Shown one piece after another: positions 7,405 to 21,097 of a stretch of DNA of 64,000 nt; position 1 is the stretch's first letter, and each line of letters starts with the position of its first letter. Source of the DNA: an uncultured Thermoleophilia bacterium (GTDB lineage: Bacteria; Actinomycetota; Thermoleophilia; Gaiellales; Gaiellaceae); contig CAWCQC010000016.1 in the NCBI GenBank assembly GCA_963797645.1, forward strand, positions 14,172 through 78,171. The letters are read 5' to 3'. The translations under genes and the position numbers were made by a program. Under the pieces are notes generated by a model. That model saw only the letters and a list, made by a program, of their open reading frames with translations. It did no database searches and was not told the origin of the DNA.

Positions 7405-9618
7405 ATGGTGGCGGGCCCAGTGCTCCGTCGCCTGACTCGAGACGCGGTCAGCGTCTGGGCGGCGTGCGTCGCCCCGGAGGCGATCACGCTCACCGTTCGT
7501 CGTCACGGCGGGGGCGGGCCCCCGCCGACCACGGTGACGGCGCAACCGACCCGGGTCGGAGCGAACCTCTGGATGACCGTGCTCACAGCCGGCGCTCCCG
7601 GTGGAACGTTCGTGGCCGGCGATGTCTACGAGTACGACCTGACCGCTCAATGGGAGGCGACGCGCGGCGCCATCCCGTGGAACGAGCTCTCGCTACCGGC
7701 GGCGACGCGTCCGACGTTCCTCGCCCCGCCGGCCACGGCCGCCGAGCTCGTAGTGCTCCACACGTCGTGCCGCAAGCCCCACGGCGGCGGCCGCGACGGG
7801 ATGGCGCTCGCGATGACGGAGCTGTCGGCGCGGTTCGACGCCGCGCCTCCGCCGCAGCCGCACCTGTTGGTGCTGTCGGGCGACCAGATCTACGCGGACG
7901 AGGTCGGGCACCCGTTGATGCCCCGCGTGCTGCGCGTCGCGCGCGATCTCGTCGGCATCGACGAGACGAATGTGTTTGGACCGCCGCCGCCGATCGGCGG
8001 GCGAGGACCGGGCACCAGGGCGCTCGGTTACACGGGCGCGACGGCCAACCACCTCTGGACCTACGGCGAGTTCCTGGCGATGTACCTGCTGGCCTGGTCG
8101 CCGGTGCTGTGGCCCGCAACGCTGCCGGACTTCCCCACGAACCCCGTGATCCCACCAGACGTGGATCCCGACGTCAGCAAGGAATCGTGGGACGACGAAC
8201 TGGGAAACGTCGAGCTGTTTCGCGCCGTGCTGCCCGAGGTGCGCCGCGTACTGGCGAACGTCCCGTCGCTGATGATCTTCGACGACCACGAGATCACGGA
8301 CGACTGGAACCTCGATCACTCCTGGGTCAACAGCGTCTACGACAAGGCGGGCGGACGGCGAGCGGTCACGAACGGCGTGCTCGCCTACGCGCTGTGCCAG
8401 CACTGGGGAAACAAGCCGGCCGCGTTCACGACGCCCGGGGCACCGGAGCAGAGGCTGCTCGAGAGGGTGTCGGCGTCCGTGTCCACGGTTCCGCCGACGA
8501 GCCCGGCGGAGGCCTGTCGCCCGCTTCTCGGCATCCCCGCCGGTCCGCTGCCCGCGGCGCCGCCCGCGCAGGCACTCCGCGACCTGACCGCCGCCGGAGC
8601 GATCCGGTACGACCTCATGATCGGACCGGACGAGGGCTGGCCGGTCCGCATCGTCCTGCTGGACGAGCGGACCATTCGCGAGTACCCGCGCGCCGACAGC
8701 CGCGGCGCGCGTATCTCCCGCGCCGCCCTCGCTGTGCAGCTTCCGCCGCCGCCGAGCTCCGTGCCGTTCACGATCGTCGTCGCGTCGGCGCCGATCGTCG
8801 GCAGCGAGCTCGTCGAGGACGTGATCCAGCCGTTGTTCGACGTGCTAGGCGAGGCGCGCTTCGCCGACTTCGAGTCGTGGTCCGCCGTCCGCGCCAATCA
8901 TCAGGACCTTCTTGCCCGCCTCGCCGCGCACCATCCCGTCGTCGTCCTCTCGGGCGACGTCCACTACGGATTCACCACGCGGCTCACCCGCACCGAGGCC
9001 GGCGTAACGACGCGGGTCGCTCAGCTGACGGCATCCGCCGCGAAGAACATCGAGATCAAGAACGCAGCGATCAGCCTGTTCAGCGAACTGGCCATGCGCC
9101 TCGCTCTGGAACGTGTACGGGAGACGTCCGGCTTCGCGTCGCTGTCGAACGCCGACAGGACGAAGCTGCTGGACGCGCCGCCGGCAGGCACGCGGCTCGC
9201 ATGGGACGACACCGTCGATGTGCTGCTCGGTCGAATCGCGCGGGAGGGAGCGTCGACGCCGACTGCGATGCCGACTCCGGTCGCCGAGGCCTACGGCCTG
9301 CCGGCCCCCGGGTGGACGTACGTGACCGAGCCCGTCGACGATCCGATGAAGACGTTCGCCGCGCCGGCCGTCGATCCGCCCTGGCCCGGGTGGGATCCAG
9401 CCAAGTCGCTGCGCATGACGGCAGCCCTGCAGGAGGCCGACCTCGAGCGCTTCGCGCGCGTGTTCGTCGGGTTGCCGCAGCTGGCCGTGGTGACCTTCAC
9501 GATCGCCGGCGCGTCGGTGACCGTGCACCACGAGCTCCGCTGTCCGGTCGGCAGCATCGAGCCGGGCCCTCCGGCGACCGACCGCCACGTCGTCAGGACC
9601 GAGGTGACGCTGACGTGA
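7405..9618 (+). CDS. G1: PhoD-like / calcineurin-like metallophosphatase, first gene of the giant operon
   Basis: LHTSCRKPHGGG, LLVLSGDQIYADEVGH, MIFDDHEITDDWNLDHSW and VVVLSGDVHYGF match the metallophosphoesterase motif set of PhoD-type phosphatases. The start is uncertain (ATG 7405; GTG 7360 is possible). The stop overlaps the G2 start. Confidence 0.75.
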   Translation: MVAGPVLRRLTRDAVSVWAACVAPEAITLTVRRHGGGGPPPTTVTAQPTRVGANLWMTVLTAGAPGGTFVAGDVYEYDLTAQWEATRGAIPWNELSLPAATRPTFLAPPATAAELVVLHTSCRKPHGGGRDGMALAMTELSARFDAAPPPQPHLLVLSGDQIYADEVGHPLMPRVLRVARDLVGIDETNVFGPPPPIGGRGPGTRALGYTGATANHLWTYGEFLAMYLLAWSPVLWPATLPDFPTNPVIPPDVDPDVSKESWDDELGNVELFRAVLPEVRRVLANVPSLMIFDDHEITDDWNLDHSWVNSVYDKAGGRRAVTNGVLAYALCQHWGNKPAAFTTPGAPEQRLLERVSASVSTVPPTSPAEACRPLLGIPAGPLPAAPPAQALRDLTAAGAIRYDLMIGPDEGWPVRIVLLDERTIREYPRADSRGARISRAALAVQLPPPPSSVPFTIVVASAPIVGSELVEDVIQPLFDVLGEARFADFESWSAVRANHQDLLARLAAHHPVVVLSGDVHYGFTTRLTRTEAGVTTRVAQLTASAAKNIEIKNAAISLFSELAMRLALERVRETSGFASLSNADRTKLLDAPPAGTRLAWDDTVDVLLGRIAREGASTPTAMPTPVAEAYGLPAPGWTYVTEPVDDPMKTFAAPAVDPPWPGWDPAKSLRMTAALQEADLERFARVFVGLPQLAVVTFTIAGASVTVHHELRCPVGSIEPGPPATDRHVVRTEVTLT

Positions 9619-19556: not shown

Positions 19557-21097
19557 TGCCGTACCGCTTCGATCTCCACGTCCGTCTCGAGGCAATCCAC
19601 ACCCCGCATGACCCGCTGGCCCTGCGGGCCGCGTTGCGGGCACAGGTGCACGACCCGGTGTGGTTCCTCGCCCGGCAGTGGCAGCTTGGCGAGCATCTCG
19701 GCCGCGACGCCGCGTCGCCCGCCCTCGTCCACCTGACGGTGACCGAGACGCCGGTTGCCGGCCGATCCAACGCGCCGGAGGAGGACCCGCGGATCACGCC
19801 ACCCGAGGCGATTATCGAGTCCGAGCCCGAGCAATGGTGGACCGTGGGGCGAAGGGTACGAGTCGGTCGTGCGCTCCGCAGTGCCGTCCCGCCGGCACGG
19901 CGACGTGATGCGACTCTGCTTGTTGGCGGCTTGGGAGCGCCGTACGATCGGCTGAACGGTCGGGTCCTCGACGGTCTGGCGTTGTACCGTGCGCGAGCAG
20001 ACCTCGGTCTGTCCGACGCCCTGTTCACGGCACAGGGGATGCCGGGCGCCGAGCCGGAAGACGACTGGCGGCCTTCGGAGCTCGCGTACTCGGCGACGTT
20101 CACCGCAGGGCCGACGACGTTGACGATCCCGCGTCACGACGGAGGCGACGTCGACTGGTACTCCGCTACAGCCACCGGTCCCGCTCCGCCTCCCGCATCG
20201 CCTCCGGTCGTGCGTACGAGCTACCCGACGCGCGTTGCCTACGACGGGTCGCCCCATCCGAGGTGGTGGCAGATCGAGGATCACCGCTACGATCCCGGCG
20301 CTGTTGCCCCGCATCGCACGCATCTCGCGGCGCTGATGCTGATCCACGTGACCGCCTCGCACGGCGACGACTGGTTCACGGCGCCGGTGCTCAGTCCGAC
20401 CGGCACGCTCGTGGCCGTCACGCGCATGCAAGTCGAAGACGTGATGGGACTGACTTCGACGAACCGCCCGGTGGACGACTGGTCACTGTTCCACGTCAGC
20501 GGACGGCGGCCCGGCGAGCTGCTGATCTGGCCGACGATCGCCAATCCGCTGACGGGTACGAGCGCGCTCGACGAGGTGTTGCTGGGCGTGGACGAGGATG
20601 CCAACGTGCTGTGGGCGATCGAGCAGCGCGTCGACGGCACGGAGCTCGTCGAGCCGGACGAGCCTGTCCCCGCGACGCCAACCGAGGCTCCGCCCGGTCA
20701 GGTCGTCGTCACGGGAGCCCGCCGGTACCGCTACGTCCCGGCGACGACGGTTCCCCGCCTCTGGCACCCGTACCTGTCCTCGGACGTCGGCAACGTGCGG
20801 CGCTACGTGCAGGGTCGCCTGGCCGACCTCAACGCCAGGCCGGTGACGCCCCGGCCAGGCCCGACGAGTCGTCTACTTCGCGACCCGGCCGCCGGCCCGG
20901 CCGACCCAGCGCACGAGATCCTGCCCGACACCATCCCCCGGGCCGGCCTTCGCCTGGAACGGCGCCACGTCCTCGGTCGGCGAACCGACGGCGAGCCGGT
21001 GCTGTGGGTGCAACGCCGCCGAATGCCGCTCTTCGCCCCGCCCGCATCTGCCTTGCGTCTCGATGTCCTCGAGGAGATCCCGGAAATTCGGCTATGA
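19556..21097 (+). CDS. G6: hypothetical protein (513 aa), last large gene of the operon
   Basis: ATG 19556 overlaps the G5 stop (TGATG). Strings VWFLARQWQLGEHLGRDAASP and HPRWWQIEDHRYDPGAVAPHRTHLAALMLIHVTASHGDDWF. Intact. Confidence 0.8.
   Translation: MPYRFDLHVRLEAIHTPHDPLALRAALRAQVHDPVWFLARQWQLGEHLGRDAASPALVHLTVTETPVAGRSNAPEEDPRITPPEAIIESEPEQWWTVGRRVRVGRALRSAVPPARRRDATLLVGGLGAPYDRLNGRVLDGLALYRARADLGLSDALFTAQGMPGAEPEDDWRPSELAYSATFTAGPTTLTIPRHDGGDVDWYSATATGPAPPPASPPVVRTSYPTRVAYDGSPHPRWWQIEDHRYDPGAVAPHRTHLAALMLIHVTASHGDDWFTAPVLSPTGTLVAVTRMQVEDVMGLTSTNRPVDDWSLFHVSGRRPGELLIWPTIANPLTGTSALDEVLLGVDEDANVLWAIEQRVDGTELVEPDEPVPATPTEAPPGQVVVTGARRYRYVPATTVPRLWHPYLSSDVGNVRRYVQGRLADLNARPVTPRPGPTSRLLRDPAAGPADPAHEILPDTIPRAGLRLERRHVLGRRTDGEPVLWVQRRRMPLFAPPASALRLDVLEEIPEIRL

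Follow-up and report, generated by a model that had tools for sequence, protein, structure and literature searches.

The window analysed here, a stretch of 64,000 nucleotides (nt) from contig CAWCQC010000016.1 of an uncultured Thermoleophilia bacterium, carries at positions 7405-21097 a single five-gene operon, in which the gene for a PhoD-type metallophosphoesterase (G1) is joined to a four-gene core, DUF6603-G4-G5-G6 (Table 1). The core amounts to ~3,800 residues and is new as a system: nothing characterised resembles its sequences, or the folds of G5 and G6, and its sole label is one DUF number. The four core genes form an ancient, mobile and obligately linked module that is paired with an interchangeable hydrolase. 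An earlier reading, made from the letters of the window alone (hereafter the sequence-only reading), had described six co-directional genes joined by four short stop/start overlaps and one overlap of 44 nt. In this region of ~70% G+C, the open reading frames (ORFs) of the forward strand lie at 7099/7405-9618, 9615-10568 (the end of a longer ORF), 10525-13071, 13411-15699, 15696-19556 and 19556-21097. They are co-directional as described, but G4 is not open as an ORF of 875 amino acids (aa), because its frame breaks at 13357. The four short overlaps, of 1 or 4 nt, all read in the window as stated (GTGA at 9615, TGATG at 13069-13073, GTGA at 15696 and TGATG at 19554-19558).

The sixth gene and the fifth junction did not survive comparison with L079, a metagenome contig sharing 99% DNA identity with window positions 9554-30944, which has one intact 1151-aa DUF6603 gene in place of the former G2 and G3, as well as an intact 875-aa G4 gene. 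The apparent 44-nt overlap is an artefact, since the frame changes at an extra base at position 10515; deletion of this base in silico restored a 1151-aa ORF 99.7% identical to the L079 protein. Likewise, the ATG-initiated frame that opens G4 at 13071 shifts to another frame near 13357, and deletion of base 13357 yielded an 875-aa ORF 99.8% identical to its L079 counterpart. Programmed frameshifting at either position was ruled out, the genes being uninterrupted in L079 and in other loci.

If the insertions in the DUF6603 gene and G4 were real, the window copy would be a dead relic, inactivated like its neighbours. Two frame-breaking insertions relative to a 99% identical contig fit such a view, as does the adjoining sequence: the operon part (9554-21000) differs from L079 by 45 mismatches and 2 indels, and the next ~10 kb (21000-30944) by 141 mismatches and 37 indels (~4 per kb), which disrupt the genes for two EamA transporters, an AI-2E transporter, a rhodanese and a BBE oxidase, all of them whole in L079. 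However, nearly every flank indel is a single base added in the window and lies outside a homopolymer, as long-read consensus error would give, and a ratio of 37 indels to 141 substitutions is far above expectation for genuine pseudogene decay, so that uneven long-read consensus quality looks likelier than decay. Moreover, the repaired proteins show no damage beyond the two insertions, and G1, G5 and G6 are intact in the window. We consider a relic quite unlikely, and the two one-base insertions are more likely consensus errors than real inactivation. The contrast drawn in the sequence-only reading between a nearly intact operon and a decayed window is doubtful for the same reasons, given the apparent unevenness of assembly quality and the two breaks in the operon itself.

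Table 1. Features of the operon in the window, and accessory genes found beside the core in other loci.
Feature	Position	Strand	Description
G1	7405..9618	+	PhoD-like metallophosphoesterase, 737 aa, ATG at 7405; exchangeable accessory enzyme of the locus
DUF6603 gene (G2 and G3 of the sequence-only reading)	9615..13071	+	1151 aa once the extra base is removed; broken in the assembly
Extra base	10515	+	A in GCTCAGGG[A]GCCGG; splits the DUF6603 gene; alignment to L079 and repair
G4	13071..15699	+	875 aa once one extra base is removed; no Pfam family
Extra base	13357	+	GGACCTCG[C]CGTGG; breaks G4; alignment to L079 and repair
G5	15696..19556	+	1286 aa, mixed alpha/beta, putative scaffold protein; very conserved N-terminal LPVRLETRF motif
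G6	19556..21097	+	513 aa; best-conserved subunit; proposed ligand-binding end of the complex
Terminator-like hairpin	21243..21286 (hairpin 21243-21276)	+	14 pairs, 10 of them G-C, T-rich tail; consensus scan only
S8 subtilase	upstream, or downstream in Cupriavidus and Nocardia		6-8 loci
M14 carboxypeptidase	upstream or downstream of core		3 loci
M64 peptidase	upstream or downstream of core		4-6 loci
Amidase_2 peptidoglycan amidase	downstream of core		1 locus
alpha/beta-hydrolase	downstream of core		3-5 loci
Weakly trypsin-like protein	upstream of core		
Pentapeptide-repeat protein	downstream of core		

The core is widely distributed. In a scan of one genome per GTDB species, at least 547 loci were found to encode G5 relatives, and the order DUF6603-G4-G5-G6 was kept wherever the contig was long enough (77 loci retrieved). 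Recurrence of this order in every informative locus goes far beyond chance juxtaposition and bears out the sequence-only reading on conserved unannotated clusters of large proteins in other bacteria. The bacterial hosts belong to about eight phyla (Actinomycetota, Chloroflexota, Myxococcota, Beta-, Gamma- and Alphaproteobacteria, Acidobacteriota and Planctomycetota), and the haloarchaea Halalkalicoccus and Salinigranum have the complete core on plasmids, in identical order (hmmsearch E = 1e-89 to 1e-217). An exhaustive profile search with G6 retrieved 3,726 representatives at 50% identity, 1,399 of them with E = 1e-30 or better; the module is present in thousands of genomes, from Actinomycetota to haloarchaea. 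Coupling is conserved along with order: 53 of 68 loci have a G4/G5 overlap of 4 or 1 nt, and across loci ~90% of junctions are 1- or 4-nt overlaps or gaps of at most 30 nt, although the choice of start codons was biased towards tight junctions. Together with natural G5-G6 fusions (see below), these junctions and the synteny of the core support the earlier proposal of a co-expressed multi-subunit unit.

The module resides in accessory DNA, on plasmids and megaplasmids, between recombinase trios, and near integrases, transposases and a P4-type primase. By tblastn against plasmids it was found on replicons of Streptomyces, Nocardia, Paraburkholderia, Rhizobium and Gemmatirosa and on four haloarchaeal plasmids. 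On a Streptomyces europaeiscabiei plasmid (L090), sets of tyrosine-recombinase/integrase genes at 3151-6772 and 24572-28194 bracket the module, suggesting that a mobile element carries it there as cargo. None of the 2.9 million viral contigs of IMG/VR has the module, and its one match in INPHARED was to a probably bacterial contig of 75% G+C devoid of phage genes, so that a phage-borne system was rejected. This contig (L083/L091; GenBank MT835531.1, "UNVERIFIED: Bacteriophage sp.", from human faeces) has the whole core at ~30.1-40.0 kb, along with genes for a serine recombinase, LysR, SIR2, BTAD-nSTAND1-WD40, ADH and GNAT proteins, and gave no phage structural match; it is probably bacterial DNA filed as phage.

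No characterised machine emerged from profile or structure searches. G4, G5 and G6 had no matches in Pfam, NCBIfam, PADLOC or PHROGs, and sequence-profile searches of the PDB with the four core families returned nothing but compositional matches of helical stretches to designed coiled coils. No paralogy among the four core proteins was detected with hhalign. The homologues recovered by word-indexed search (228 of G5 and 726 of G6) are all annotated as "hypothetical", and none has a Pfam domain; exact look-ups with the G5 and G6 of the window retrieved no contig. AlphaFold2 gave confident models of both proteins. That of G5 (residues 114-1286) reached a predicted local distance difference test score (pLDDT) of 88 and a predicted TM-score (pTM) of 0.66, and that of G6 a pLDDT of 77 and a pTM of 0.73. 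Foldseek found no neighbour of G5 in the PDB (best E = 1.9) and none of G6 in the PDB (best E = 0.13) or in BFVD (best E = 0.095), all TM-scores for both models being at or below 0.1.

The products of the core are predicted to form a complex, at least between G5 and G6, because the gene order is invariant, the genes are coupled, and natural G5-G6 fusions exist. Nine fusion representatives of 1678-1877 aa were identified, each consisting of a complete G5 followed by a complete G6 (P0272, P0288, P0293, P0294, P0304, P0305, P0317, P0332 and P0359). In locus L092 (10001-15136), such a fusion closes a three-gene operon, DUF6603-G4-(G5-G6); a Trypsin_2 and Trypco1 pair lies upstream on the opposite strand. 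In the G6 monomer model, segments 1-52 and 227-272 are the most conserved, yet have pLDDT values below 50, as would be expected if they were elements that become ordered with a partner.

Domain grafts were found on three of the core proteins. G6 bears two PG_binding_1 domains in a betaproteobacterial clade, in which an M64 peptidase gene follows each time, a lamin-tail (LTD) domain in haloarchaea, three TIG/IPT immunoglobulin-like (Ig-like) repeats in variants of ~870 aa (phmmer match to CGTase domain D, E = 5e-7, with faint precomputed TIG matches), and, by eye, a collagen-like Gly-Pro run in one variant. Haloarchaeal G5 proteins (2322-3124 aa) are enlarged at five sites by insertion of a haloarchaeal surface domain and of decapeptide repeats, and a Streptomyces G4 of 1706 aa is annotated as a VCBS-repeat protein. 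These modules are those of extracytoplasmic binding proteins, grafted on proteins that have no export signals: N-terminal signal hydrophobicity was lacking in 62 of 62 G4, 67 of 68 G5 and 70 of 70 G6 proteins, and no transmembrane (TM) segment conserved across homologues was found.

The sequence-only reading had recognised enzyme motifs in G1 only. It was right in that no NTPase, nuclease, TM segment or signal peptide was found in the rest of the operon, but the former G3 does belong to a named family, DUF6603 (E = 4e-81). As one protein, G2 and G3 matched Pfam PF20248 with 273.5 bits (cut-off 27; E = 4.1e-81) over 480 of 502 profile positions, and the RefSeq annotation of the orthologues is DUF6603 domain-containing protein. 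The DUF6603 domain is preceded by ~300 aa of helical sequence at the N-terminus, and most loci have a single DUF6603 ORF of 1080-1240 aa. Against the PDB, the DUF6603 profile matched designed coiled coils only, over the N-terminal 175 residues. We ruled out that the N-terminal (G2) part is swapped along with the accessory enzyme, as the family hidden Markov model aligns from residue 1 in all long forms; a conserved TM helix at the N-terminus was also rejected, the hydrophobic PALLAALLIVAP-type segment being limited to the PhoD-associated clade, and a match of G2 to HTH_TANC1 lay below threshold. G4 has conserved N-terminal (~1-230) and C-terminal (~605-875) domains separated by a variable helical middle. 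None of 40 G4 homologues gave a credible Pfam match, and nothing was found with the G4 profile among PDB sequences. Its assignment as a VMAP (vWA-MoxR associated) protein was discarded, the VMAP-M7 match being below threshold and present in only one of the 40 homologues.

G1 matched Pfam PF09423 (PhoD) in two stretches (43.9 bits, cut-off 27; E = 2.3e-11). Four motifs are invariant in 13 orthologues (S121-C122, G159-D-Q-I-Y-A-D165, D293-D294-H295 and G517-D-V-H520), and we take their Cys, Asp, Asp-His and His residues to be the metal site of the PhoD family. G1 thus resembles the alkaline phosphatase/phosphodiesterase PhoD of B. subtilis in its Pfam match and metal-site motifs, but the relationship is very remote (the profile match to structure 2YEQ is marginal, E = 0.54), and G1 differs in its ~200 extra C-terminal residues, in its translational coupling to the DUF6603 gene and in having no Tat or Sec signal. 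By eye, the N-terminus of the window protein opens with a PhoD_N-like strand and has no signal peptide, and in the nine orthologues scanned KD12 was at most 1.83, below the signal-peptide range by this crude hydrophobicity proxy. The twin-arginine export signal typical of secreted PhoD, which is not strictly defining, was likewise not seen, by eye in the window G1 or by this proxy in the orthologues.

PhoD is not the general leader of the operon that the sequence-only reading had made it. Of 77 loci, only about 16-20 have a PhoD orthologue upstream of the core (14-16 when counted as adjacent, co-directional genes; PF09423 matched 14 of 79 flanking ORFs from other loci), and other hydrolases take its place elsewhere (Table 1). 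These accessory genes are co-directional with the core, adjacent to it and often overlapping, and none of 24 accessory enzymes showed signal-peptide hydrophobicity at its N-terminus. Compared across loci, the PhoD gene is optional and the accessory hydrolase interchangeable. In loci with short-form DUF6603 (~750 aa; e.g. L043, L089 and L095), the hydrolase gene follows G6 (S8 for Cupriavidus and Nocardia, M64 for L031, L032 and L095), and in those with the long form (~1100 aa; e.g. L002, L029 and L034) a PhoD, S8, M14 or trypsin-like enzyme is encoded upstream; this may reflect clade history or a functional link. A docking domain common to the accessory hydrolases was not established, the signals being weak (S8 versus trypsin-like C-termini, probability 23%; an 839-aa protein of L017 versus M64, 80%). 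In the window itself, alpha/beta-hydrolase genes lie upstream of G1 at 3825-4625 (+) and 4719-5657 (+), cut off from the operon by a divergent SAM methyltransferase gene on the opposite strand (6317-7276, -); elsewhere, alpha/beta-hydrolases recur beside the core.

What the core does with these enzymes can be read in more than one way. It might be an intracellular cage, scaffold or zymogen complex that restrains a dangerous hydrolase for the producer's own use, possibly in cell-wall turnover, developmental autolysis or sporulation, or phosphate or peptide recycling in starvation. Several partners are indeed cell-wall or nutrient hydrolases (PhoD, M14, Amidase_2, S8), most carriers live in soil and go through developmental cycles (Streptomyces, Myxococcus, Actinoplanes, Nonomuraea, Chloroflexota), export signals are missing, and the coupling and G5-G6 fusions imply a fixed stoichiometry. 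Nevertheless, the distribution is patchy, plasmid-borne and mobile rather than lineage-wide as for housekeeping genes, hosts as unlike in their walls as monoderms, diderms and archaea all have the module, and the Ig-like and collagen-like decorations point outward. Furthermore, the G5 and G6 models have no similarity to protease-cage folds and no encapsulin HK97-fold or bacterial microcompartment (BMC)-fold neighbour, and there was no Pfam match to either in the operon. A cage is, in our view, decidedly improbable.

We tentatively prefer, with somewhat less than even confidence, a complex that would be assembled in the cytoplasm, released, and used to bring a swappable hydrolase to cell-wall targets, a proposal drawn from gene neighbourhood and the logic of the domain grafts alone. 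The four core proteins would assemble in the cytoplasm into one large hetero-oligomer, in which G5 would serve as scaffold and G6, placed at the C-terminus of G5, as the tip that binds a ligand or surface. The hydrolase, encoded next to the core and coupled to it in translation, would be an interchangeable payload, which in the window is a PhoD-like phosphoesterase and in other loci a peptidase (S8, M14 or M64), a peptidoglycan amidase or an alpha/beta-hydrolase. Having no signal peptide, the complex would exit the cell by a route encoded outside the operon (lysis or vesicles), and the enzyme would be brought to the cell wall or another polymeric surface of another cell, in antagonism, predation or scavenging. 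Its logic would be that of a non-contractile, polymorphic enzyme-delivery or enzyme-anchoring complex of new folds.

By analogy, a first comparison may be drawn with the Tc (ABC) toxins (TcA-TcB-TcC), which are likewise very large, signal-peptide-free proteins assembled in the cytoplasm and acting outside it (for the core, export is proposed). Tc toxins also share Ig-like receptor-binding modules in a big scaffold subunit, an exchangeable enzymatic payload, and mobile, patchily distributed genes. Structures of Tc toxin subunits are present in the PDB. In contrast to them, the core has no sequence similarity to Tc toxins in Pfam, no PDB neighbour for the G5 model and no RHS/YD cocoon, its putative payload is a separate gene rather than the C-terminal tail of a cocoon protein, and no channel-forming hydrophobic segment was found in it. 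Neither a TcA-like shell or channel nor a TcB/TcC RHS cocoon was matched in Pfam, NCBIfam or PDB profiles, with a fold check on G5, and G5 as a TcA-like shell was rejected for want of a fold match.

Extracellular contractile injection systems (eCIS), tailocins and phage tail fibres offer a second parallel. They are signal-peptide-free particles (for the core, assembly into a particle is proposed) in which a distal binding protein is diversified by Ig-like, collagen-like and peptidoglycan-binding modules and effector genes adjoin the structural genes. Unlike eCIS and tailocins, the core is accompanied by no sheath, tube, baseplate, spike or AAA+ ATPase, either in the operon (Pfam, PHROG) or in the sampled flanks (Pfam); unlike eCIS and phage tails, G6 has no neighbour among the predicted viral structures of BFVD, and IMG/VR was negative. 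The likeness to Tc toxins, tailocins and eCIS would be an analogy of logic, not homology. A bolder version of the proposal is more doubtful: that the core represents a new class of signal-peptide-independent machine, common to bacteria and haloarchaea and built wholly of new folds, which would assemble in the cytoplasm, be released, bind target walls through a diversifying G6 tip and deliver or position the hydrolase, as a functional parallel to Tc toxins and tailocins that is evolutionarily unrelated to them.

Several observations weigh against a released, hydrolase-delivering complex. The proteins of the window carry none of the surface-type grafts, which are a feature of minority lineages; the core showed no hydrophobic or pore-forming stretch that is conserved; and no holin, endolysin, secretion ATPase, lysis or membrane gene recurs beside the core in the flanks sampled. 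In fold, G5 and G6 resemble neither Tc toxins nor phage tails nor other delivery machines, the fold-level comparison covering, among the four core subunits, G5 (residues 114-1286) and G6. No paper on DUF6603, PF20248 or the BGTF surface domain was found in the literature searched. Finally, STAND NTPases (TIR- or BTAD-nSTAND1-WD40, NB-ARC) are encoded at most 10 kb from the core in seven loci or more (L009 17653-21822, L034 15337-19008, L081 19771-21500, L087 21222-23684 and L091 21232-26349 among them). They may regulate it, work with it or adjoin it by chance, and the combination of such neighbours with protease, phosphoesterase and lipase partners would be compatible with an intracellular conflict system as well.

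The main competitor is accordingly an anti-phage or anti-plasmid system of the abortive-infection type, in which a cytoplasmic sensor complex would unleash the hydrolase on host components. Besides the STAND genes, a SIR2-domain protein (on the L091 contig) and Trypsin_2/Trypco1 belong to the same set of neighbours; the system has no signal peptides or TM segments, sits on plasmids and adjoins integrases and transposases, and is present in two copies (L051 and L060) in one metagenome-assembled genome (MAG). Its swappable hydrolytic partners recall modular-effector defence (Lamassu, Avs/STAND, CBASS), which shares with it an accessory-genome location, a constant core with varying hydrolases and some STAND or TIR neighbours. 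However, STAND proteins are abundant in actinomycete genomes generally, and none of the 5,027 models of PADLOC-DB 2.0 matched any of the seven ORF pieces. Unlike modular-effector systems, the ~3,800 residues of the core contain no NTPase, cyclase, nuclease or nucleic-acid-binding domain, and its subunits bear extracytoplasmic-type binding domains: the PG_binding_1, lamin-tail, TIG, collagen-like, VCBS and haloarchaeal surface grafts are hard to reconcile with a cytoplasmic site of action. M14, M64, PhoD and Amidase_2 enzymes would also be unusual as defence effectors. We regard intracellular defence as unlikely, though a rival to be taken seriously.

If the released complex that we favour is borne out as a delivery or surface-attack device, it would add another class to the short list of microbial protein weapons, and would provide a modular chassis in which binding tips and enzymes can both be swapped. 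If the core is a defence system instead, it would be among the largest known, and one without any NTPase. In either case, hypothetical proteins become a defined system that can be tested in hosts suited to genetics (Streptomyces, Cupriavidus, Myxococcus fulvus and Paraburkholderia).

A few further observations concern the surroundings of the operon and individual loci. The hairpin downstream of G6 lies between this gene and an EamA transporter gene starting at ~21354, a position taken from L079. Two MAGs labelled Verrucomicrobiota and Pseudomonadota (L002 and L005) have operons, including the PhoD gene, with 71-75% protein identity to that of the window, and all its other close relatives are actinobacterial MAGs, which points to mis-binning or recent transfer. 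The version on a plasmid of Rhizobium lusitanum (L088, 2472-15065) is divergent, with four overlapping genes (357, 731, 946 and 597 aa) filling the slots of G4 and G5. Over the next 12 kb (17147-29038), this core is followed by genes for a protein with a CVNH lectin domain, two GH25 lysozymes and a protein with a glucosaminidase domain; it is only on the Rhizobium plasmid that GH25 lysozymes are nearby. Pentapeptide-repeat proteins are encoded beside the core in four unrelated loci (L081 16221-17201, L087 28228-29032, L088 1-366 and L090 7286-9244), directly downstream of G6 in L090.

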